From: Candidatus Omnitrophota bacterium
GTDB lineage: Bacteria > Omnitrophota > Gorgyraeia > Zapsychrales > Fredricksoniimonadaceae
NCBI GenBank assembly: GCA_963828495.1
Contig: CAWHFJ010000009.1
Span: 298,338-362,337, forward strand
Length of the DNA stretch: 64,000 bases
Direction of reading: 5' to 3'
The translations under genes were made by a program, and so were the position numbers. Shown here in pieces: positions 3,191 to 24,017 of the stretch. Numbering within the stretch: the stretch's first letter is position 1; each line of letters begins with the position of its first letter. The notes under the pieces are model-generated. The model did not search any database and was not told where the DNA came from. It saw only the letters and a program-made list of their open reading frames with translations.

Positions 3191-4640
3191 ATGTTGCCCC
3201 TTATCCACTGGAACTTGATTTCATTAGAAATGCTGATGACCATCACTCTGGCCTTTTTGCTGGTCTTGGATATTATTTTGCCTAAAGACATTCTCAAAGA
3301 CTGGATTGGCACTTTAAGTTTTATCGCTCTGTTTGGGTTAATTGTTTTTTGGAGCACCCAACAGCATCTATGTGGCGTGACCTTTAGCGGGATGTTCGTC
3401 ATGGATTCCCTGGCATGGTTTTTCAAAGGGTTTTTCCTGCTGACAATGGTTTTCATTTTTGTCATGACACAGCAATTCTTTAAGGCGTTGGGCGAACGAC
3501 GCAACGAATTCTATTTATTACTGTGGTTGGCATTAATCGGCATGTGCTTGATTGCCTCCAGCGCTGACTTCCTCTTAATGTTTATCTCTATAGAAATACT
3601 CACCCTGTCTTTGTATGTCATGACCGCGTATCTTAAAAGCGACAAACTTTCCATTGAAGCCGGGATGAAGTATCTCATTTTAGGCGCGCTAGCCTCGGGC
3701 TTTTTCCTTTACGGTATGAGTCTCTTCTACGGCGCCACCGGCTCCACACGTTTTGAGACAATTCAAGGTTTTGTCGCCACACATGCCATGGCGCCCATGA
3801 CCCTTTTGGCCTTGGTCCTCATTTTCGCCGCAGTTGCTTTTAAAATCGCGGCTGTGCCCTTTCATATGCGGGTCCCGGATGTGTATCAAGGCGCCCCGAC
3901 ACCTGTCAGCGCGCTACTCTCCGTCGGCTCAAAGGCCGCCGGATTTGTGATCTTAATCCGGCTTTTCTTCGGTGTTTTCGCCGGCTGGCATCCGCAGTGG
4001 AGTTTGGTGCTGGTGATTCTTTCCGTGATCACAATGACCTACGGCAATTTGGTGGCGATGTTTCAAACTAATATTAAACGATTGATGGGTTATTCCACCA
4101 TCGGCCACGCGGGTTATCTGTTGATGGGTGCGGCGGCGGGCTCTTGGCTGGGAGCAGGAGCTATCAACTTTTATCTTTTAGGATATCTGTTTACGAATTT
4201 AGCCGCGTTTTTAGTGATTGTCCTGTTTTCTGCGGCGACAAACACTGATGAAATTGACAATTATGCCGGGACTCTTCAGGCGCTCAGGTATTTTAGCCTG
4301 TACCATGTTGTTAGCGCTGGTGTCGTTGGCGGGCTTGCCGCCCTTAGCAGGGTTCTTCGGGAAATTTGCTTTACTAATGGCGGTCATCAACCGTGGGCTT
4401 ATTGGGCTCGCCCTGGTTGCCGGGGTCAATATGGTGATCTCGCTCTATTACTATCTGATGATCGCCAAACGTATGTACGTAGACGCCCCCCCTAATGCTT
4501 GCCCTATCCCTGTATCCATGAACATGCGCTTGATCCTTGGCGTGGCTATCATCGGGATCCTCGCTATCGGCATTTTCCAAGGTCGATTCCTGGACGCCGC
4601 CTTAAACGCCGTCAAAGGGATGCATCTACTCCAAAGTTAA
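3191..4640 (+). CDS. nuoN: NADH-quinone oxidoreductase subunit N, frameshifted as assembled
   Basis: ORFs 3191..4495 and 4218..4640 together give a full NuoN/ND2. The frame changes near 4265-4270 (..DEIDNYAG | LFRRSGILACTMLLALVSLAGLPPLAGFFGKF..). Confidence 0.85.
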
Positions 4641-12688: not shown

Positions 12689-13798
12689 TTACAAATTCTC
12701 TAAAATCATGTCCACGTCGACAAAATCATTGACCAGGCGCCTGGCCTCAAGGATTTTATCGCGGTCCGTCTTCTGGATTTTGGGCGTCATGTTCTCAATG
12801 GCGGCCGCGATGGTATAGGTGTCTTGATCCGAATATAAGACCGGGATATGGCTGTCTTTGAGCAATCCGCCGATTTTAGGGTCAGGGATCAAGCCCCCGG
12901 TTAATATAAGGCCGGCGACCTTGACCGCCCGCCCCTGCTGCAATAAATACGAAGAAACTGTGACCAGCATATTGTCCACCCGGTCTCCGGATGTGATGAC
13001 CAAAGCCCCGTCACGCAAGTGGCTGATCATATTATAGGGCTCCATGGCCGCGACAATGGCATCATACACACGGGTTTGCAAATTTTCCTCACCGGAAAAC
13101 ACTTTTAAATCCAGGAGTTCTTTAATCTGTGCCATCGTAGGCGCGCTCAACCAATCCATTTGAGGAATGACGCCTAAAAGCCTGATCCCTTTGCTCTTAA
13201 GCCCACGGCCGACGATATTCTTGATTTTTTCCAGATTTTCCGGAATGACCTTATTGATAATAACGCCCAATACCGGGACCTTGCGCAAATCAAACAGGAC
13301 TTTATTGAGCATGATTTCGTCAATAGCGCGGCCTATGCCGCCGCCGGATATAATGATGACCTGTGAGCCCAGCAAGGCGGCGACATCCGCGTTAGAGCAA
13401 TCGATCACGGAACCTACCCCCGCATGGCCGGTGCCTTCAACAATGATGGCGTCCTTGCCCCTGGTAACCGTCTGAAAGGATTTAAAGATCTTGTCCTGCA
13501 ATTCTTCTCTTTTGGGCTCAAGGATATATTTTTCCGTATAGCCATGACCGATCGTCACCGGGCTCATGTCTTTAATATGCTTCGTACAGTGATACACCTC
13601 GCCTATCAAATACGTGTCTTTATCAATGGCCTCTTGGGCATAGGGGACCGTTTCCTGGCCCACGGGTTTCATAAACGCCGTTTTGATCTTGCGCTCCTGA
13701 AAACTTTTAAAAAGCCCCAGGGCCAAGGTGGTCTTGCCGGCGTTTTGATTGATGGCCGATATAAAAATGTTTTTAAGATGTCCGGATTTTTTCATCAT
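12689..13798 (-). CDS. BioD-like P-loop / DRTGG-domain protein, resembling the N-terminal regulatory half of phosphotransacetylase
   Basis: N-terminal P-loop (ISAINQNAGKTTLALGL) and the overall layout resemble the Pta N-terminal domains. This is my recognition only. The stop lies 9 nt upstream of nuoA. Confidence 0.55.
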   Translation of the reverse strand: MMKKSGHLKNIFISAINQNAGKTTLALGLFKSFQERKIKTAFMKPVGQETVPYAQEAIDKDTYLIGEVYHCTKHIKDMSPVTIGHGYTEKYILEPKREELQDKIFKSFQTVTRGKDAIIVEGTGHAGVGSVIDCSNADVAALLGSQVIIISGGGIGRAIDEIMLNKVLFDLRKVPVLGVIINKVIPENLEKIKNIVGRGLKSKGIRLLGVIPQMDWLSAPTMAQIKELLDLKVFSGEENLQTRVYDAIVAAMEPYNMISHLRDGALVITSGDRVDNMLVTVSSYLLQQGRAVKVAGLILTGGLIPDPKIGGLLKDSHIPVLYSDQDTYTIAAAIENMTPKIQKTDRDKILEARRLVNDFVDVDMILENL

Positions 13799-13836
13799 GG
13801 TTGATTAAAACATAATAAATGGCTTTAGCCTTTAAA

Positions 13837-14883
13837 TCAATGGTTTAGATGCTCAAATAAAATATACGGATAAATGCCTGAAGAGTGATTGTCGCTCCAG
13901 CTGATGCCGACAGCATAATGACCTAACGGCATAATTTCACGGGGAAAAATATCCGCCGGGATCTTTGTGCTATCAACCAGCCGCTCGCCGGTTGTCTCAG
14001 ACACGCATCCGGCGCACGGACAATGCGCGCGCAGATCAAAAGCCTTGGCCGACAGCACCCGCCCGTCGCTGAAAGTCAAAACAACCTGCCCATCCCGGAA
14101 GGCCGTCTCGGTTAACTGAGATGGGGAGGACTCTCTGTCTTTCAGTGCCTGCAACAATTCATCCCCTGCCTTCTGGATATATACGTCCGGCTGATACTGA
14201 CTCATCGATCCGGAGAGGGCCTCTAGAATCGGTATCTCGACTAAGGTCTTGACGCCGAATCGTTGGGCTAAGGCCCCTGCTTTGTGTTGGCCGAAAATAG
14301 TATATTTTTTGCCTGTATCCGGCGCTATAAAATACGCCATGTTCTCGATGACGCCTAAAATAGGCACTTTGACTTTTTCAAACATCAGTATCCCGCGCGC
14401 CGTATCCACCAAAGACAAGGTATGATGTGTGGTGACAATCACGGCCCCTGTTAACTTAATAGACTGAGTAATAGTTAATTGCACATCCCCTGTCCCGGGG
14501 GGCAAATCCAAGATTAAATAATCAAGCTCTCCCCAATCGGTTTGAAATAATATTTGCTGGATATAATTCGTCACCATGGGTCCGCGCATCACCGCCGGAG
14601 CATCTTGCCATAAAAAGCCGAAAGACATTAGCTTCAGATTATGGCATTCAATGGGGACTACCATTTTAAATTCATTAATGTGAGCTTGAATATTAGGCAG
14701 TTGGAACAATGCGGGCAGAGAAGGCCCGAAAATATCCGCATCCAGCAATCCCGTCTTGAATCCCCGATGGGCTAATTCACAGGCTAAAGCCGCGGCTATC
14801 GTTGATTTGCCCACCCCTCCTTTGCAGGAAGAAATGGCTATGACATGGCTGACTTTAGATAAAGCGAACGGATTGCTACTCAT
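13837..14883 (-). CDS. mrp: Mrp/ApbC/NBP35-family Fe-S cluster carrier ATPase with a C-terminal DUF971-like domain
   Basis: Deviant Walker A (SCKGGVGKST), a D-rich switch (LDLPPGTGD) and a C-terminal Cys motif CPCAGC followed by WSDNHSSGIYPY. Confidence 0.85.
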   Translation of the reverse strand: MSSNPFALSKVSHVIAISSCKGGVGKSTIAAALACELAHRGFKTGLLDADIFGPSLPALFQLPNIQAHINEFKMVVPIECHNLKLMSFGFLWQDAPAVMRGPMVTNYIQQILFQTDWGELDYLILDLPPGTGDVQLTITQSIKLTGAVIVTTHHTLSLVDTARGILMFEKVKVPILGVIENMAYFIAPDTGKKYTIFGQHKAGALAQRFGVKTLVEIPILEALSGSMSQYQPDVYIQKAGDELLQALKDRESSPSQLTETAFRDGQVVLTFSDGRVLSAKAFDLRAHCPCAGCVSETTGERLVDSTKIPADIFPREIMPLGHYAVGISWSDNHSSGIYPYILFEHLNH

Positions 14884-14964
14884 CGCATAACCCTCCTTTA
14901 TTTATTATCACAATTTTTCACAAATAGGCTACAAAAATCGCGTTTTGGGATTACAATCGATACT

Positions 14965-16626
14965 ATGAACGATTGGCTAAAAAAACTCTCCGCCCAACGC
15001 TGGCTGGGCGTTGTACTGATCGTCCTCGTTGGCGCCATTGCCTATCACAATTGCCTGCCCAACGAAATGTTCTGGGATGACGATGACTTTATCCGCAACA
15101 ACCGCTTCATCAAAGATTTCCATTATTGGCCTTTATGGTTTTCTCAAAATTTGGTGGCCGGCAGTTACCTTGTCAGCAATTACTGGAGGCCTTTGCTTTT
15201 AAGCATTTTTGCTCTGGAATGGCATTGGTGGCAAGGATGGGTTTATGGGTGGCATGCCGTCAGTGTCGGCGTCCATGTATTAGCCGCTGTCACGCTTTAT
15301 TATTTATTGAACAGGCTTTTCAAGCGGACCTTATTAGCACTCCTGGTTGCCCTGATCTTTGTCGCTCACCCCGTCCACAATGAAGCGGTCGTCTATGTCA
15401 ACAGCATGGGAGATGCGCTGGCCAGCCTGCTCGTTTTATCCGGCCTGCTGTGCTATGCCCGTTTCCGCCAATCGCAAAAGCCGGCATACATAAGCCGCTC
15501 TTATTATGCCTCTCTGCTTTTTTTCCCATTAGCGGTGATGGCCAAAGAAACCGGTTTTGTGTTGGCCGGATTACTCCCCTTAATGGATTTTCTCCTGCTG
15601 CAAAATAAAAAATCTTGTCTGGCCCGCGTCCGACAGACCGCAGCGGCCCTCTGGCCGCTGTTGGGGCTTGCGGTGACCTATGTTATTCTGCGCGCCACAG
15701 TGCTCAATTTTTCCAACAGTTTTAATTTTTATAATCAGGCAAGCAATGCTTTTACCACCCACCCCAGCATCCGGCTCATGACTTTCTTTAAAGCCATGAC
15801 GCAGTACACCGGTTTTCTTCTTTTCCCCTATCAATTGAGGGTAGAAAGACAACTGCCCTGGGCCCAATCCCTTGGGGAATGGGATGTGACAACCGGAGGC
15901 CTTATCGTTGCGGCTTTGTTGGTTGCGGCATTACGCTATTGGAAAACTAAACCGTGGGTTGCTTTTGGCGTAGGCTGGTTTTTTATCGCTATAGCCCCGG
16001 CCTCCAATATTATAGTCCCCATCAATGCCGTCATTTATGAGCATTTCCTTTACATGCCCATGATCGGCATTACTTTAATCTTTGTTCATGCCGTCCTGGA
16101 TTGGGCGCAAATACACCGGGCCACGGCGACGCTATGTAAAATTATGGGTGTGCTTCTCCTGCTGTTTTGCGCCGTCAATATCCACCGCAATCTGGACTGG
16201 CGTACCTCCATCGGTTTCTATGAACAGCTCGTCACCTACAGGCCTGATGATTACCGTGTCATCAATAATTTAGGGATGGAGTACGCCAATAACGGTATTC
16301 GCGATAAAGCCGAAGCCACCTATCTTAAGGCCATTGCCTTAGACCCTCAAAACCCCGTGGCCTACCACAATATCGCCGGCACTTACCGCGACACCGGGCG
16401 CATAGCTCTGGCGCTAAAGAATTTTCACAAAGCCCTTGAACTTAATCCCGGTTTTATTTTTTCTTACCGCTCTTTGGCTGATCTCTACTGGAAACTCGGG
16501 CAATATGATAACTGCAAGGAGAATTTGTTGCAGGTCTTGCGCATAGACCCGAACGATGCCTCTGTCCGTCAGGCCCTGCGCATGGTGGAAGAAAAGCTTA
16601 CTGAAAAATCTTCTCCAGGGGCTTAG
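14965..16626 (+). CDS. TMTC/PMT-like GT-C fold glycosyltransferase with C-terminal TPR repeats (paralog 3)
   Basis: About 10 predicted TM helices. A first-loop acidic motif (FWDDDDFIRNNRFIKDF) resembles the FVFDD motif of TMTC proteins. The C-terminus has 3-4 TPRs. Confidence 0.6.
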   Translation: MNDWLKKLSAQRWLGVVLIVLVGAIAYHNCLPNEMFWDDDDFIRNNRFIKDFHYWPLWFSQNLVAGSYLVSNYWRPLLLSIFALEWHWWQGWVYGWHAVSVGVHVLAAVTLYYLLNRLFKRTLLALLVALIFVAHPVHNEAVVYVNSMGDALASLLVLSGLLCYARFRQSQKPAYISRSYYASLLFFPLAVMAKETGFVLAGLLPLMDFLLLQNKKSCLARVRQTAAALWPLLGLAVTYVILRATVLNFSNSFNFYNQASNAFTTHPSIRLMTFFKAMTQYTGFLLFPYQLRVERQLPWAQSLGEWDVTTGGLIVAALLVAALRYWKTKPWVAFGVGWFFIAIAPASNIIVPINAVIYEHFLYMPMIGITLIFVHAVLDWAQIHRATATLCKIMGVLLLLFCAVNIHRNLDWRTSIGFYEQLVTYRPDDYRVINNLGMEYANNGIRDKAEATYLKAIALDPQNPVAYHNIAGTYRDTGRIALALKNFHKALELNPGFIFSYRSLADLYWKLGQYDNCKENLLQVLRIDPNDASVRQALRMVEEKLTEKSSPGA

Positions 16627-17233
16627 CCTCGATCCTTAAACCCCCGTCATGCTCAATATGGATCGTGTACAAATACCCGGGAATAAACACAACGCCGGGC
16701 GCTTCGATTTGCACGCTCTTGATGCCGGCATTTTTCGCTTTTTTCTCATCAAAAGCAAAACGCCAAAAATCTTTCCAGAATCTGTTTTCAAAACCCCCCG
16801 CGCGCCCCGGGATTTTATAGCCGTCGGGGATTGTGTCCACCGGGGTGATAGGAAATTCCTGCGTATTTGGGCCGTCGAGAAAAAACGCCTTCCAAAATAA
16901 ATACACGCTTTTGCCCCTGAAACGGTCCCCGGCGGCCACAAATTTATCTTCAAAACGCACGACCAAGGACTGAAACTGAATCAAATTCCCGCTGAAAGTA
17001 AAATATTTGGGCTCCATGGCCCTGCCTTCGGTATCATACTCGACGAATTTGATGGTGGTAAAATCCCGGTGCGCGGTCTCGTCAAAATTGACCTTGGTCA
17101 CCAGCACCTGGGCGGCACGCGACTCCGCCCCAAGCCGCTGCAACATTTGCTGATACGCATGCTCCTGATTAAACCGGTTGACGAGCCACCAGGCAGCTAT
17201 CATCAAAAAAAGGATAATAAAAAGTTTTTTCAT
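16598..17233 (-). CDS. Hypothetical membrane-anchored protein (211 aa from MKKLFIILF)
   Basis: The ATG at 17233 forms an ATGA overlap with the stop of the upstream TPR gene. It has one N-terminal TM helix and no family I recognise. The longer ORF start at 17329 would overlap the upstream gene. Confidence 0.5.
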   Translation of the reverse strand: MKKLFIILFLMIAAWWLVNRFNQEHAYQQMLQRLGAESRAAQVLVTKVNFDETAHRDFTTIKFVEYDTEGRAMEPKYFTFSGNLIQFQSLVVRFEDKFVAAGDRFRGKSVYLFWKAFFLDGPNTQEFPITPVDTIPDGYKIPGRAGGFENRFWKDFWRFAFDEKKAKNAGIKSVQIEAPGVVFIPGYLYTIHIEHDGGLRIEAKPLEKIFQ

Positions 17234-19038
17234 CGCTGCGGTACCACTCCCGACACTTTCTTGAGCAGATGGTAAAATTGTGGATTGACCGCATAGCCTA
17301 ATGCTTGCGCTTTGCGTAAATTGACCCAAGCCTTATCGTACTCTTTTAACTGATAAAAAACAACGGCCAGGTTATTATACGTCTGTGCAAAGTGCGGGTC
17401 TATGTCAAGGGCCTTGTTGAAATCGTTGATCGCCTGCGCGTACATTTTTTGTTTGACAAAGGCATTACCGCGATTGTTATACCCTTCTACACGGTCCGGG
17501 TTTAATAGAATGGCCTTGTTATAATCCGCCACCGCGCCGGCAAAATTGCCCTGTCTGGAAAAAACAGCGCCGCGGTTGACATAGGCATCTGTAAACCCGG
17601 AATTGATGTCAATGGCCTGAGTTAAGTCAGCCGCGGCTTGAGTAAGGTTGCCCTGATGATAATACACCATCCCGCGGTTATTATACGCGTCTGCATAGCG
17701 TGGATATATGTCAATAGCCCTGTTTAAATGAACCAACGCTTGCGTGTACTGACCTTCTTTATCCAGGGAAAAACCGTAATTGTTGTGCGGCCTGGCTTTA
17801 TCGGGAGATTTTTGCACGGCATCTTCCCATAAGACAAGATCATTCTTCCAGACTTTATTGCGCTGGAAGGCGGCCATCGCCAATAGCGCGATCATACACC
17901 CTACGATCCCCAACACTAGGGTGCGTCTATGGCTTAGCATCGAGACCGCCGCCACCGCCGCCACAAAGAACCCGAATGAAATAAGATACAATTTATGCTC
18001 AAAGATCACATTGGCCCGGGGCGCCAAATTGGCAGAAAATGTGATCAGCATCCAGGCCAAACCAAAAGCTATTAAAGGCACACTCCGACGCAGCTTGATG
18101 ATCAAACCGATCATACTGCCCATCACACATAATCCCACCAAGGTCAATGGCGGAGAAAGGAGTCCTGTGGAGACAGGATAATCATAATCCAAATTCTGAT
18201 GGATAGGTAACACCAACAGACGCAGAAAGGTCAAAAAGACCCTCATTTGAGTCAACACATAACGTGCCGGAGTCAACATGTCCCCGTCGTGGGATTCGGA
18301 AAGTACTGATTGTGAAAAAACACTGAACCCCTGCTGTCCCATTTTGGTAAACAGCCCATACAATAAAACCCCGGCAACCGCTAAAACAATATACAACGTC
18401 TTATTGTCCTTTTTAGGAAAGAGTATCCACTCTCCGGCCAGCATCATCGCCGGCACGGTAATGACCACTTCCTTGGTCATAAGGCCAAAAACAGCTAAAA
18501 GCCCTGAGAGCCCAAATAATCTGATTTTATTGACCCTGTCCCCCGCCAGACGTGCGCTCAGATAGCAGTACATGGTCCCCAAATAAAACACCGTCGCCAT
18601 AGATTCGAAACGCTGTGAAATATAACTCACGGCTTGGGTTTGGCAGGGGTGGACTAAAAAAAGGACCGCTATCATAAAGGGGAGTTCTTTGCTGAGGCGG
18701 TCTTGTGCGGGAAACCATTTGATTGTTTGAAACAACAGCCCCGCCAAAGCCCACACCAGCCCTGTCGCCGCCAGATGCACGATAAAATTGAAAATGTGAT
18801 AGCCCTGCGGATGGATTTGATTGAAATAATAATTGAGCGCAAAAGAATACATGCCCATCAAACGGGTCATGGGAAAAAAATGCCAGATGAGCGGAATGCG
18901 GCTGAAATCTTTAATGTAGAGATTATTAACAACGAAGGCACTGTCATCAAATACAAAACCAAAGGAAAACGTCTGGCCGTAAATCAAAAGCCCTATCCCA
19001 ACGAGTATTGCCCATCGCCACACATAATATAGTTTCAT
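17230..19038 (-). CDS. TMTC/PMT-like GT-C glycosyltransferase with 5 C-terminal TPRs (paralog 1)
   Basis: It has the FVFDDSAFVVNNLYIKDF loop motif, a polytopic N-terminal domain and a TPR tail. The start forms an ATGA overlap with the upstream paralog. Confidence 0.65.
   Translation of the reverse strand: MKLYYVWRWAILVGIGLLIYGQTFSFGFVFDDSAFVVNNLYIKDFSRIPLIWHFFPMTRLMGMYSFALNYYFNQIHPQGYHIFNFIVHLAATGLVWALAGLLFQTIKWFPAQDRLSKELPFMIAVLFLVHPCQTQAVSYISQRFESMATVFYLGTMYCYLSARLAGDRVNKIRLFGLSGLLAVFGLMTKEVVITVPAMMLAGEWILFPKKDNKTLYIVLAVAGVLLYGLFTKMGQQGFSVFSQSVLSESHDGDMLTPARYVLTQMRVFLTFLRLLVLPIHQNLDYDYPVSTGLLSPPLTLVGLCVMGSMIGLIIKLRRSVPLIAFGLAWMLITFSANLAPRANVIFEHKLYLISFGFFVAAVAAVSMLSHRRTLVLGIVGCMIALLAMAAFQRNKVWKNDLVLWEDAVQKSPDKARPHNNYGFSLDKEGQYTQALVHLNRAIDIYPRYADAYNNRGMVYYHQGNLTQAAADLTQAIDINSGFTDAYVNRGAVFSRQGNFAGAVADYNKAILLNPDRVEGYNNRGNAFVKQKMYAQAINDFNKALDIDPHFAQTYNNLAVVFYQLKEYDKAWVNLRKAQALGYAVNPQFYHLLKKVSGVVPQR
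17820..18997. repeat. Copy 1 of a 1178-bp perfect direct repeat (period 1922 bp)
   Basis: Identical to 19742..20919 at every position I compared. Mismatches begin at 17819 vs 19741 and at 18998 vs 20920. It covers the membrane domain of paralog 1. Confidence 0.9.
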
Positions 19039-20966
19039 TGTATAGATATCTCCCCCCTGCCGCCTGTCCCTGATGCCTTCTTAAGCGCATGAAGAAATTG
19101 AGGATTGACCGCGTAGCCTAAGGCTTCTGCCCGACGGAGATTATCCCAAGCCTGAGCGTACTCTTTTAACTGATAAAAAACAACAGCCCGGTTATTATAC
19201 GTCTGTGCGAAATCCGGCTCTATGTCTATGGCCCTGTTATAATCAGCCATCGCCTGAAGATGCCGGCCTCCTTTAGCATAGGCATTGCCGCGATTATTAT
19301 ACTCCTGGGCGCTATGTGAGTTGATGGCAATGGCCTTGTTATAATCTGACAACGCTTGGAGCCAGTCGCCTTGACGGGAATAAACAGTCCCGCGATTGTT
19401 ATAGGCATCCGCATAGTCGGGCTTTATGGCAATGGCCTGGCTATAATCAGCTATCGCGCCGGGTAAATTGCCTTGATGGAATAAAGCGGCGCCTCGGTTG
19501 TTATAGACTTCTGCCCAGTTAGTGCTTAAGGCAATGGCTTTACTATAATCAGCTATGGCTTGAGCAAACCTGCCTTGGCTGGCATAAACAACCCCTCGAT
19601 TGTCATAGGCATTGACATATTCAGGATTTATGGCAATGGCCTTGTCGTAATCCGCTATGGCTTGAATAAAGTGGCCTTGCGCGTAATGCCCAAGGCCACG
19701 ATTATTGTAGGCTCTCGCTTTATGCGGAGACCTGCGCACGACATCTTCCCATAAGACAAGATCATTCTTCCAGACTTTATTGCGCTGGAAGGCGGCCATC
19801 GCCAATAGCGCGATCATACACCCTACGATCCCCAACACTAGGGTGCGTCTATGGCTTAGCATCGAGACCGCCGCCACCGCCGCCACAAAGAACCCGAATG
19901 AAATAAGATACAATTTATGCTCAAAGATCACATTGGCCCGGGGCGCCAAATTGGCAGAAAATGTGATCAGCATCCAGGCCAAACCAAAAGCTATTAAAGG
20001 CACACTCCGACGCAGCTTGATGATCAAACCGATCATACTGCCCATCACACATAATCCCACCAAGGTCAATGGCGGAGAAAGGAGTCCTGTGGAGACAGGA
20101 TAATCATAATCCAAATTCTGATGGATAGGTAACACCAACAGACGCAGAAAGGTCAAAAAGACCCTCATTTGAGTCAACACATAACGTGCCGGAGTCAACA
20201 TGTCCCCGTCGTGGGATTCGGAAAGTACTGATTGTGAAAAAACACTGAACCCCTGCTGTCCCATTTTGGTAAACAGCCCATACAATAAAACCCCGGCAAC
20301 CGCTAAAACAATATACAACGTCTTATTGTCCTTTTTAGGAAAGAGTATCCACTCTCCGGCCAGCATCATCGCCGGCACGGTAATGACCACTTCCTTGGTC
20401 ATAAGGCCAAAAACAGCTAAAAGCCCTGAGAGCCCAAATAATCTGATTTTATTGACCCTGTCCCCCGCCAGACGTGCGCTCAGATAGCAGTACATGGTCC
20501 CCAAATAAAACACCGTCGCCATAGATTCGAAACGCTGTGAAATATAACTCACGGCTTGGGTTTGGCAGGGGTGGACTAAAAAAAGGACCGCTATCATAAA
20601 GGGGAGTTCTTTGCTGAGGCGGTCTTGTGCGGGAAACCATTTGATTGTTTGAAACAACAGCCCCGCCAAAGCCCACACCAGCCCTGTCGCCGCCAGATGC
20701 ACGATAAAATTGAAAATGTGATAGCCCTGCGGATGGATTTGATTGAAATAATAATTGAGCGCAAAAGAATACATGCCCATCAAACGGGTCATGGGAAAAA
20801 AATGCCAGATGAGCGGAATGCGGCTGAAATCTTTAATGTAGAGATTATTAACAACGAAGGCACTGTCATCAAATACAAAACCAAAGGAAAACGTCTGGCC
20901 GTAAATCAAAAGCCCTATCAGAACAAGTACGGACCATCGCAGAAGATAATATAGAAAACTGGTCAC
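19035..20966 (-). CDS. TMTC/PMT-like GT-C glycosyltransferase with 6 C-terminal TPRs (paralog 2)
   Basis: ORF 19035..21026. The likely start is the GTG at 20966, which forms a GTGA overlap with the upstream stop and matches the length of paralog 1. About 390 aa are identical to paralog 1, followed by a diverged TPR array. Confidence 0.65.
   Translation of the reverse strand: MTSFLYYLLRWSVLVLIGLLIYGQTFSFGFVFDDSAFVVNNLYIKDFSRIPLIWHFFPMTRLMGMYSFALNYYFNQIHPQGYHIFNFIVHLAATGLVWALAGLLFQTIKWFPAQDRLSKELPFMIAVLFLVHPCQTQAVSYISQRFESMATVFYLGTMYCYLSARLAGDRVNKIRLFGLSGLLAVFGLMTKEVVITVPAMMLAGEWILFPKKDNKTLYIVLAVAGVLLYGLFTKMGQQGFSVFSQSVLSESHDGDMLTPARYVLTQMRVFLTFLRLLVLPIHQNLDYDYPVSTGLLSPPLTLVGLCVMGSMIGLIIKLRRSVPLIAFGLAWMLITFSANLAPRANVIFEHKLYLISFGFFVAAVAAVSMLSHRRTLVLGIVGCMIALLAMAAFQRNKVWKNDLVLWEDVVRRSPHKARAYNNRGLGHYAQGHFIQAIADYDKAIAINPEYVNAYDNRGVVYASQGRFAQAIADYSKAIALSTNWAEVYNNRGAALFHQGNLPGAIADYSQAIAIKPDYADAYNNRGTVYSRQGDWLQALSDYNKAIAINSHSAQEYNNRGNAYAKGGRHLQAMADYNRAIDIEPDFAQTYNNRAVVFYQLKEYAQAWDNLRRAEALGYAVNPQFLHALKKASGTGGRGEISIQ
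19742..20919. repeat. Copy 2 of the 1178-bp perfect direct repeat
   Basis: See copy 1. Off-frame ORF translations on both strands are also identical between the copies. Confidence 0.9.
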
Positions 20967-21625
20967 TTGCCTGTCGTTGTCGGTACGGTTGGGACTGTTG
21001 GAGGAATCTGCCCGCTCTGCTCCCATTGCTTGCGTGCGGCAAGCAGCTGCGCTCTGATCTGCGCCGCTGTTTGGGTGTCTCCGTTTTTGACTGCGGCACC
21101 CAGCGCAAAGAAAAGCGGTAGCTGGCTCTGCCTAAATTGCTCTTCTTGGGCGTGTCGGGCGGCCTGTCCCGGATGTGCCTGCAACCATGCTTGCTTGTTA
21201 GCCCTTATTTGAGCAAACCTCTGCTGCGCATTAGCGGCCAATTGACCCTGAAGTTGCTGGGCTGTTTTGGTATCCCCGCGGTCGGTCGCATCTTGTAGTT
21301 GAATTTTAAGCTGCATCTGCGCGTTAGCCCACTGGTCATTGGGATTATTCGACGGCGCCGGCGGATGGGCCTTGGCCCAGGCAATCTTTTGGGAGTGGAG
21401 CACTGCCATCTCCTGAAGAATCATCGCGTTCTCTTGGGCCTTAAGCTGCTGGGCTAAGGGTTGATTCCCGCTTTGTATGGCCTGCTTGATCTGGTCCCGT
21501 AGCTGTTGTAATTGTTGTTTAAATGCCTGCGCGTTAGGTGGAGAGCCTGGTGAAGTCTGGGCCAAAGAGACACTTGTGAAAATCGTCGCTAATCCCACAA
21601 GAAATAATATCTTTTTTAATTGCAT
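20963..21625 (-). CDS. Secreted Gln/Ala-rich repeat protein with a Thr/Pro-rich C-terminal tail
   Basis: Signal peptide MQLKKILFLVGLATIFTSVSLA. Three ~60-aa internal repeats (..TAQQLxxQL..K.AW..AHP..). The C-terminus is PPTVPTVPTTTGK. It is the first gene of a 4-gene chain. Confidence 0.55.
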   Translation of the reverse strand: MQLKKILFLVGLATIFTSVSLAQTSPGSPPNAQAFKQQLQQLRDQIKQAIQSGNQPLAQQLKAQENAMILQEMAVLHSQKIAWAKAHPPAPSNNPNDQWANAQMQLKIQLQDATDRGDTKTAQQLQGQLAANAQQRFAQIRANKQAWLQAHPGQAARHAQEEQFRQSQLPLFFALGAAVKNGDTQTAAQIRAQLLAARKQWEQSGQIPPTVPTVPTTTGK

Positions 21626-21691
21626 AGTATTCTCCCTTTGATTATGATATCGCTATTCTACTACTGTTTTAAATGCTGTACAAGTTTCCTT

Positions 21692-22330
21692 ATGGAAATT
21701 ATTAAAGACTTTATAAATACCTTCCTGCACCTTGACCAGTCTATTTCCATCGTTACTGCCCACTGGGGCGCATGGACTTATGTTCTTGTCTTTGTCATTA
21801 TTTTCTCTGAAACAGGGCTGGTCGTCACCCCTTTTTTACCGGGGGATTCCCTGCTTTTTGTGTTAGGCGCGTTAGCGGCCGACGGAAATCTCCACTTAAT
21901 GCTACTGATTCTGGTGTTATCTGCGGCTGCCGTTAGCGGTAACATGGTCAACTACACTATCGGCGGCCTCTTGGCAGAGCGTGTGATCAACCGTCAACAT
22001 ATCCCTTTTGTCAAACAAGTCTATATTCAGCGCACACATACCTTCTTTGAAAAATACGGCGCCAAGACTATTGTCATTACGCGATTTGTTCCCATCATAC
22101 GCACCTTCGCTCCTTTTTTAGCAGGAGTGGGCAGCATGCCTTACGGAAAATTTACGACTTATAATACTATTGGCGGGGTGCTCTGGGTACTGGTGGGGAC
22201 TTTAAGCGGGTATTTCTTCGGCAACCTGCCTTTCGTGCGCCAAAACTTCTCTCTGGTCATTTTGGCCATTGTGGTTATTTCTCTGATCCCTGCCGCTTGT
22301 GAATTACTTAAACACAAAAACCACCGCTAA
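21692..22330 (+). CDS. dedA: DedA/SNARE-associated family membrane protein
   Basis: DedA signature (ETGLVVTPFLPGDSLLF, RFVPIIRTFAPFLAGV). The start is taken at MEIIKDF; ORF-track start is 21620. Confidence 0.75.
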   Translation: MEIIKDFINTFLHLDQSISIVTAHWGAWTYVLVFVIIFSETGLVVTPFLPGDSLLFVLGALAADGNLHLMLLILVLSAAAVSGNMVNYTIGGLLAERVINRQHIPFVKQVYIQRTHTFFEKYGAKTIVITRFVPIIRTFAPFLAGVGSMPYGKFTTYNTIGGVLWVLVGTLSGYFFGNLPFVRQNFSLVILAIVVISLIPAACELLKHKNHR

Positions 22331-22332
22331 AA

Positions 22333-22821
22333 TCATTGCTGCTCTTCGTGCTCTTGGGCGTCGTGGATCTTCTCATGTTCAAGTTTATGTTTATGCATCA
22401 AGGCGGTAAACTCTGAAAACTGTTGGGGCGTCAAAATACTCCTGACCGCAAGGACGGAATTAAGCCGGTCATCCGCCATTTGAGATTCCAGCGCTTTAAG
22501 TCGGCTATGAAGTTCATGGATTTTATTCATATCCAGCTGCGGCTTCATCAATTCCTGTTGAAAAACTTGTCTATACGCTTTCCCTTGTTCCCGGATAGCT
22601 TTCATTCGAGCGCGATGCTGCATTTTATTGTCTTCCAATTGTTTTTTTTGAATTTCTGTCAAATGAAGCTGACTGTAAATTTCCTGAATGCCTCCGCCGC
22701 CATGCCTCCATGTGGGAGAGGACACCTCAGCCTCCGGGGAGCCTTCCGCGTGCACCCAAGCCGTCGCGCCAAAAACACAAAGCCATAGGCCGCTGAATAA
22801 AACTATTCTTAACTGTGTCAT
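22333..22821 (-). CDS. Periplasmic Spy/CpxP/ZraP-family (LTxxQ) protein with a His-rich tail
   Basis: Signal peptide MTQLRIVLFSGLWLCVFGATAWVHA. Two LTxxQ motifs (LTEIQ, LTPQQ). The C-terminus is HKHKLEHEKIHDAQEHEEQQ. The start forms an ATGA overlap with the sigma-factor stop. Confidence 0.65.
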   Translation of the reverse strand: MTQLRIVLFSGLWLCVFGATAWVHAEGSPEAEVSSPTWRHGGGGIQEIYSQLHLTEIQKKQLEDNKMQHRARMKAIREQGKAYRQVFQQELMKPQLDMNKIHELHSRLKALESQMADDRLNSVLAVRSILTPQQFSEFTALMHKHKLEHEKIHDAQEHEEQQ

Positions 22822-23381
22822 AGAAGACCCTTTCCTTGAAGATTGCCTTTTAAAGACAATAATTTCTCCCTGGCCCTTTTCAACCTTGAACGCACCGTAT
22901 TGATGTTGATTTTTAAAGCTTGGGCAATTTCCTGATAACTTAACCCCTCGATGTTGCGCAACACGACGCACGCCCTCTGGTCAGGGGAAATTTCTCCTAA
23001 AAGATGCTCGACGAGACGGCTTTGGTAGTCCTGATTCATATGCGCCTCAACCTCACTGGGAGCGGGAGAGACACCCTCACCCCAGGCTTCATCAAAGGCC
23101 ACTGTTTTTGTTCTGGAAGCTTTTTTGGCAAAATTAATCGCATAATTAGCTGTGATCCTGTACACCCAAGTTTTGAAAGAAGATTCAAAACGAAAACTTT
23201 TCAGTTTATTGTAAATAATTAAAAAGACCTCTTGGGTCACTTCCCTGGCATCTTCCGTGTTATTGACGACACGTAACGCCACGTTATAAACAAAACTTGA
23301 GCTTGCCTTATACACCTCCTCAAAGGCCTGCACATCTCCTTGAGACGCCCTGACTAAAACATCTTCACTGATCTGGTCCAT
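22818..23381 (-). CDS. ECF-type RNA polymerase sigma-70 factor
   Basis: Region 2 (VYNVALRVVNNTEDAREVTQEVF, WVYRITANYAINF) and a region 4 HTH (LSYQEIAQALKININTVRSRLKRAREKL). Confidence 0.85.
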   Translation of the reverse strand: MDQISEDVLVRASQGDVQAFEEVYKASSSFVYNVALRVVNNTEDAREVTQEVFLIIYNKLKSFRFESSFKTWVYRITANYAINFAKKASRTKTVAFDEAWGEGVSPAPSEVEAHMNQDYQSRLVEHLLGEISPDQRACVVLRNIEGLSYQEIAQALKININTVRSRLKRAREKLLSLKGNLQGKGLL

Positions 23382-23775: not shown

Positions 23776-23795
23776 GTGGCCTCCTACAAATAAAA

Positions 23796-23814
23796 AATTG
23801 CCTCGCATGGACTC
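23796..23814 (-). repeat. 19-nt perfect copy of the tRNA-Gln 3' end (pseudo-tRNA fragment)
   Basis: AATTGCCTCGCATGGACTC occurs at 23796..23814 and at 24016..24034. Upstream, GGTTC plus a 14-nt hairpin insert mimics the T-loop. Confidence 0.7.
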
Positions 23815-24017
23815 CGGCCTTCGGCCTAGAACCAGTTGTTCGCCTCACTAAAGTTCGGTCTCACGCCTCAAGGGAAACCTAACGGTTTCCCTTTGACGCT
23901 CCTCGCTACGCTTCGTCGCTGTTACCCTTCCCTTAATCCTATCCGCGTAGTTGGGGAAAACAATCTTTTCCCCAAACCCCTTTTTTGGTTCTCGTTCAAG
24001 CCGATAAATAATTTTAA

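Follow-up and report, generated by a model that had tools for sequence, protein, structure and literature searches.

A perfect 1178-bp tract shared by two otherwise divergent tandem genes of a Candidatus Omnitrophota bacterium: probable recent gene conversion of a GT-C-like membrane domain

How can two adjacent genes be identical at every position for more than a kilobase and differ on both sides of that tract? This question is raised by a stretch of 64,000 nucleotides from a Candidatus Omnitrophota bacterium (contig CAWHFJ010000009.1, positions 298,338 to 362,337), hereafter referred to as the window, in which coordinates are counted from the first letter. Two intact genes lie there in tandem on the minus strand: gene A (17230..19038; 602 amino acids [aa], ATG start) and gene B (19035..20966; 643 aa from a GTG start). 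Each encodes a GT-C-like membrane domain of about 410 aa followed by an array of tetratricopeptide repeats (TPRs), five in A and six in B. Our preferred reading, to which we assign a probability of roughly three in four, is that A and B are old tandem paralogs of one GT-C/TPR family and that a recent gene conversion overwrote an internal core of 1178 bp.

In a self-comparison of the window at the DNA level, the minus-strand segments 17820..18997 and 19742..20919 matched at 1178 of 1178 positions with an offset of 1922 bp. The first covers codons 17-408 of gene A, and the second covers the matching codons of gene B, in its putative catalytic membrane domain. This tract is the sole long run of identity at that offset, and its two copies are in direct orientation with a spacing of 744 bp. 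Since the flanks are only about 60% identical, 1178 matches in a row are not attainable by chance. An earlier annotation made from the letters of this DNA alone (the sequence-only reading) had claimed both the identity and its sharp edges, and the position-by-position comparison bears this out. In the DNA alignment of A with B, which that reading had proposed for mapping the breakpoints, a few bases past either edge the identity is already down to about 55-70%.

The gene-specific parts flank the tract on both sides. The 3′ parts (17230..17819 in A and 19035..19741 in B, both on the minus strand) encode the TPR repeats and a C-terminal cap; the unit listing based on Pfam TPR matches gives five repeats for A and six for B, just as the sequence-only reading had counted. 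The 5′ ends, delimited by the boundary alignment, comprise the first ~14 codons of A (18998..19038, minus strand, directly after the B stop) and the first ~16 codons of B (20920..20966, minus strand). The N-terminal codons of the two genes do differ, as had also been claimed, and the difference extends over the first 14-17 of them.

Divergence between A and B was estimated segment by segment by the Nei-Gojobori method for the core (392 codons), the TPR and C-terminal part (190 codons), and the N-terminus (15 codons). The core contains 0 synonymous differences at 267 synonymous sites. In the TPR and C-terminal part, the proportion of synonymous differences (pS) is 0.64, which corresponds to a synonymous divergence (dS) of about 1.4 (1.43) and is accompanied by a nonsynonymous divergence (dN) of 0.30; the N-terminus has a dS of 0.43. 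The step in synonymous divergence along the alignment is thus abrupt, as expected of gene conversion. The last ~50 codons, which had been described as similar again, are indeed 72-90% identical at the DNA level. This similarity appears to reflect constraint at the protein level, because synonymous divergence is saturated there as well (pS 0.63).

The TPR arrays also bear on the age of the two genes. The proteins numbered P here and below were compared in pairs among the 60 closest homologs. The array of gene B is 72.6% identical at the aa level to that of P0012, which comes from another organism and also has six repeats, and the array of gene A is 59% identical to the five-repeat arrays of P0007 and P0009. 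The two arrays are about 50% identical to each other, such that each is nearer to arrays of other organisms than to its neighbor. By these relationships, the two TPR lineages predate the split between these organisms. With the TPR arrays and the first ~15 codons saturated at synonymous sites, the data support A and B being old paralogs with a recently converted core, and not the products of a recent duplication. The sequence-only reading had left the choice between recent duplication and gene conversion. Conversion is favored by the dS of 0 in the core versus about 1.4 in the TPR part, by the old TPR lineages, and by the recurrence described below. Recent duplication as the sole cause was rejected, since the whole unit would have stayed similar and dS outside the core is saturated. 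Hypermutation of the TPR part was also rejected, as the gene B array has a 73% relative in another organism.

The same mosaic structure was found in other genomes. The membrane domains of P0003 and P0004 are 98.5% identical and their TPR parts 31%; the corresponding values are 95.7% and 32% for P0033/P0034, and 92% and 29% for P0022/P0026. By comparison, P0003 and P0008 are 100% identical in the TPR part and 94.6% in the membrane domain. Cores of paralogs that are more alike than cores of orthologs (98.5% for P0003/P0004 vs. 94.6% for P0003/P0008, against TPR identities of 31% vs. 100%) point to concerted evolution, of which this pattern is a classical sign. Among more distant members of the family, a tandem pair on contig L033, from another metagenome-assembled genome (MAG), shares an identical tract of 962 bp (1868-2829 and 3546-4507). 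In this pair, dS is 0.005 in the core, 1.3 in the N-terminal part, and 1.4 in the TPR part. The end of the tract lies within the membrane domain and not at the domain junction, which suggests conversion tracts rather than swaps at a fixed domain junction. Mosaic pairs with a patchier pattern are present on L050 and L039. Because the mosaic is present in Omnitrophota, Nitrospirota, and Desulfobacterota-type genomes, the core may evolve in concert throughout the family.

Under the mechanism that we propose, RecA-type non-reciprocal homologous recombination would have copied the core from one paralog onto the other, in either direction. The overwritten segment would be essentially the whole catalytic domain, and the outcome would be one catalytic module joined to two different acceptor-recognition modules. 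One conversion event suffices for both edges, because the tract is internal and has divergent sequence on either side. The resulting perfect direct repeat of 1.2 kb could then serve as a substrate for deletion by recombination and, equally, for collapse by an assembler. Either process would yield a hybrid gene composed of the B 5′ end, the core, and the A TPR array.

Such a hybrid is what we found in the closest related assemblies. In the comparison of orthologous loci that the sequence-only reading had also suggested, L001 (ERZ25039473) and L002 (ERZ25039472) have one gene at this locus, with exactly this composition; its 5′ end is identical to that of gene B, and the TPR array of gene A is 100% identical at the aa level to that of the single gene in L001. 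The single-gene form corresponds to the window minus one period of 1922 bp. Over the roughly 7.4 kb that they share between 13770 and 23054, L001 shows no difference from the window besides this indel, and outside that interval the two differ by single-nucleotide polymorphisms at roughly 0.5-1%. As a separate observation, this difference-free block could be a tract that the strains have in common through recent recombination or a sweep.

Several points weigh against our interpretation. L001 and L002, which are close, and L003, which is from a more distant species, each carry one gene at the locus. No contig besides the window spans the B-to-A junction (19262-18998), and a 30-mer that crosses it has no exact match in the metagenome contigs of the Joint Genome Institute (JGI). 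Neither gene A nor gene B (the latter as 643 aa or 663 aa) is recorded as an exact protein. The TPR array of gene B has no close match in the protein database; the best match of its TPR part, 53% identical, is among generic TPR proteins, a result that speaks to the lack of a near-identical recorded copy. The perfect identity of the core could have been slightly exaggerated by consensus polishing. Finally, no Pfam, NCBIfam, or PDB sequence model recognizes the membrane domain, and we infer the enzymatic activity, the donor, and the acceptors alike.

For the single-gene assemblies, a real copy-number polymorphism has somewhat less than an even chance of being the explanation. It is compatible with conversion and states that the two-copy and hybrid forms interconvert by unequal recombination in the core. 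Recombination between the two cores would give precisely the sequence of L001. Further evidence comes from Logan contigs, which are independent short-read assemblies that we retrieved through the exact 220-aa and 211-aa proteins flanking the gene pair; Logan uses k = 31, keeps each 31-mer once per run, and discards k-mers that were seen once (PMC12424806). Two of these contigs cross the edge of the core without a break, L087 by 258 nt and L093 by 202 nt, as a single-copy form would. However, such crossing is also possible at low coverage, given that once-seen k-mers are discarded (PMC12424806). L002, for its part, is probably a collapsed consensus of two copies, because in the first ~330 nt after the core, at sites where A and B differ, its departures from A take the base of B at 21 sites, versus 9 sites that match neither, and because it also carries frameshifts. 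L001 may have arisen by collapse or by a genuine deletion. Independently of the core, L002 (contig_110582) has many genes split by frameshifts along the whole locus when compared with L001 and the window, which indicates a low-quality consensus.

A second alternative, which we regard as unlikely, is that the TPR array moved and not the core: a recent tandem duplication of the whole gene would have been followed by the acquisition of a foreign TPR array and a different 5′ end from another paralog or strain allele. TPR arrays do act as exchangeable lineages, as illustrated by the gene B array being nearest to that of P0012, and relatives vary in copy number and TPR type at this locus. The strongest parallel is provided by L082 and L083, which come from two JGI samples of a related organism. 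L082 2851-5058 and L083 1-2208 are 99.8% identical over 2208 nt comprising the upstream flank and the core. At the domain junction, after about codon 397, the two contigs part: their TPR arrays are unrelated, and the genes downstream are different. (The next gene on L083 is a further divergent member of the family, with an overlap of 8 nt.) Nevertheless, this scenario needs two replacements, one at the 5′ end and one in the 3′ part, compared with a single internal conversion tract. It also lacks a donor for the B array, either among the three family members of the 64-kb window or in the protein database, and the L033 tract ends inside the membrane domain instead of at the domain junction.

An assembly artefact in the window, which the sequence-only reading had named as the alternative explanation, is very unlikely. 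It would consist of a mis-join or over-expansion of two strain haplotypes, or of differing cores polished to identity. In its favor, removing exactly one 1922-bp period from the window reproduces L001 throughout 13770-23054, L002 and L003 are also single-copy, and neither A, nor B, nor the junction 30-mer turned up in the collections searched. Against it, the unique segment of 744 bp holds a complete junction of the B stop with the A ATG and a distinct A 5′ end, which is beyond the invention of an assembler. L086 (ERR10755936) matches window positions 22750-19262 with 0 mismatches in 3489 nt, such that a separate, independent short-read data set contains the B 5′ end, the core, and the first 480 nt of the B TPR array in one contiguous stretch. 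In three other runs, contigs break off k-1 nt inside the repeat, with both edges covered: L088 (ERR11523656) ends at 20890, and L091 (ERR11523654) and L095 (ERR11630400) both start at 17849, each exactly 30 nt inside the tract. In a de Bruijn graph with k = 31, a branch at the repeat edge gives such ends, so in these samples two sequences lead into the same core and two lead out of it. The collapsed appearance of L002 and the presence of the same mosaic in unrelated assemblies speak against an artefact as well. The two-copy arrangement of the window is thus very probably real; the suspicion of an artefact is largely removed for the window, by the confirmation of gene B in L086 and the branches at both repeat edges, and is live for the single-copy L001 and L002. 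L086 runs through the core unbroken; we considered whether this is evidence against a second copy and rejected it, since Logan drops once-seen k-mers and keeps each 31-mer once per run. The companion contig of L086, L092, comes to an end 7 nt before the core is reached, in keeping with a gap in coverage.

What kind of enzyme the converted core may encode was addressed through structure. The C-terminal parts of A and B have strong TPR matches in Pfam. For the membrane domain, which in gene A spans window positions 17803-19038, there was no Pfam match at E ≤ 10 with gene A, the third paralog of the window, 17 aligned homologs, or seven distant relatives. No NCBIfam match was found, nor any match to PDB sequences with a single sequence or a profile. 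The sole profile hits were to ZC3H12 ribonucleases at E values of 0.4-2.5 and were set aside as chance matches. AlphaFold models of the gene A protein were built with 48 homologs in a full-length version (mean predicted local distance difference test score [pLDDT] 91) and a membrane-only version (pLDDT 87; predicted TM-score 0.90). In fold searches against the PDB, the full-length model retrieved TPR proteins only, and GT-C matches emerged with the membrane-only model. For the latter, GT-C enzymes account for nine of the first 11 Foldseek matches, and a weak match to Pmt4 (9i5l) is the twelfth. The best match is ArnT (5f15; E = 5.8e-4, probability 1.0, TM-score 0.51 across the whole 412-aa domain), and the others include ArnT 5ezm, STT3 (8age, 8b6l, 8agc, 6ftg, and 6s7t), EmbB (7bvc and 6x0o), and PglB 5ogl. 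With one match alone at E ≤ 0.001, the support for a GT-C fold is consistent but moderate.

The sequence conservation agrees with this assignment. Residues D31-D32 (FVFDDS), located directly after helix 1, are invariant in 49 sequences and also occur in the third paralog; they sit where GT-C enzymes carry an acidic motif, in the first extracytoplasmic loop. The model contains about 11 long helices, of which helices 7 and 8 are joined by a long conserved loop, and the TPRs follow. As an odd number of long helices precedes the TPRs in the model, the array is predicted to be on the non-cytoplasmic (periplasmic) side. From these models we accept for A and B a predicted GT-C fold with a TMTC-like architecture. 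The sequence-only reading had called the genes GT-C/TPR glycosyltransferases, and this finds its backing in structure (ArnT, STT3, EmbB, PglB, and Pmt4) and in the invariant DD, not in a sequence model. A placement among the PMT (GT39) enzymes found no backing: neither a PMT or PMT_2 match nor a MIR match was obtained in Pfam, and the model contains no beta-trefoil domain.

The closest known counterparts in architecture are the eukaryotic protein O-mannosyltransferases TMTC1-4 (GT105). The N-terminal domains of TMTCs have ArnT as the best template, 11 transmembrane (TM) helices, and lumenal TPRs (PMC7801869). A and B share with TMTC1-4 the N-terminal GT-C domain of about 11 helices, the long loop between helices 7 and 8, the C-terminal non-cytoplasmic TPR array, ArnT as the best structural template, and the conserved DD after the first helix. 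Some homologs of A and B carry the label "protein O-mannosyl-transferase" in their JGI source annotation. However, TMTCs are marked by DUF1736, which corresponds to the TM7-TM8 loop; this defining model has no match in the 24 family members scanned, and A and B, which are bacterial, are for that reason not filed in the TMTC family. ArnT (GT83), PglB, and EmbB provide the best fold matches of the membrane-only model but differ in having 9-14% sequence identity to it, no relation at the level of hidden Markov models, and a C-terminal periplasmic domain of their own instead of TPRs. By analogy with the TMTCs and ArnT, a polyprenyl-phosphate donor would supply the sugar that the membrane domain transfers, and the choice of acceptor would fall to the TPR array. 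In the proposed mechanism, the sugar would be passed from the lipid-linked donor to periplasmic or envelope proteins picked by the array.

Domain-restricted gene conversion has precedents in the mammalian TLR1/TLR6 pair (PMC2077338), duplicated mtrA (PMC4632066), the release factors RF1/RF2 (PMC4530459), and the concerted evolution of polyketide synthase domains (PMC4256081). As in A and B, non-reciprocal recombination maintains identity over one part of the two paralogs, and the remainder diverges; the marks of this are a jump in synonymous divergence along the genes and a greater similarity between paralogs than between orthologs. The present case differs in that homogenization affects the entire catalytic module of a membrane glycosyltransferase-like protein and spares a repeat array, and in that the pattern recurs in several phyla within one family. 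The process is already known, and A and B are a clean new example of it in an uncharacterized and very large bacterial family.

This locus can be viewed as a natural domain-swap experiment, in which one catalytic module is combined with two TPR arrays. The pairing is in line with the view that acceptor specificity in TMTC-like enzymes is set by the TPR array, and it offers a direct way into the search for substrates in a large family that has no curated model. There is also a practical consequence for metagenomics. A perfect tandem repeat of 1.2 kb makes assemblers drop a gene and create a hybrid, which has probably happened in at least one related public assembly. Because genes are dropped at such repeats, counts of this family in MAGs are likely underestimates.

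The membrane domain appears to define a large GT-C-like family for which there is no curated model. In a search of 1.84 billion representatives, the matching clusters at 50% identity numbered 36,912 at E ≤ 1e-3 and 18,090 at E ≤ 1e-10. The closest named homologs are from Candidatus Omnitrophota MAGs; among GTDB species representatives there is no genome of the window species, and the best match is 69% identical at the aa level. The family occurs in Omnitrophota, Nitrospirota, KSB1, Bacteroidota, delta-proteobacterial lineages, and others. Tandem arrays are common, with two or more copies at 21 of 80 loci and six copies at one. Long same-strand arrays were observed on L019 (3204-15442), L030, and L021; the MAGs concerned are one each of KSB1 (six copies), Omnitrophota (five), and Bacteroidales (four). 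A more speculative extension, which we consider improbable, is that homogenization of the core is selected family-wide, perhaps through a shared donor or dimers of membrane domains. The cores would then act as recombination handles by which TPR "specificity cassettes" are added, deleted, or swapped, and populations would differ, much as in phase variation, in the envelope proteins that they glycosylate, with the one- and two-copy forms as switch states.

The stop of gene B overlaps the ATG of gene A (ATGA at 19035-19038), and the two genes are probably co-transcribed. The longest open reading frame (ORF) of gene B extends to an ATG at 21026 (663 aa), but the GTG at 20966 is most likely the start, because the L001 ortholog starts at the equivalent position. 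A search by tblastn with the membrane domain found three family members in the window. The third is a divergent gene on the plus strand (14965..16626; 553 aa) with C-terminal TPR matches in Pfam; its membrane domain is 24% identical, and it is kept in L001, L002, and L003.

Two further genes on the minus strand flank the pair. Upstream, a Gln-rich protein of 220 aa with an N-terminal hydrophobic leader is encoded at 20963..21625, with its end overlapping the start of gene B. It is likewise upstream of a family member in L001, L002, L082, and L083, and its position is constant across related species. Downstream, a protein of 211 aa, also with an N-terminal hydrophobic leader, is encoded at 16598..17233, with its start overlapping the stop of gene A; the exact protein is present on seven contigs. 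Neither product has a family match, and both are candidate partners or substrates.

Elsewhere in the window, homology to L001 stops at 23785. L001 1-1225 and L002 1334-3239 contain extra genes without a counterpart in the window, including two Abi_2 (abortive-infection) ORFs. The region 23786-24016 looks like a small strain-variable defence islet beside genes for an extracytoplasmic function (ECF) sigma factor and an LTXXQ protein.

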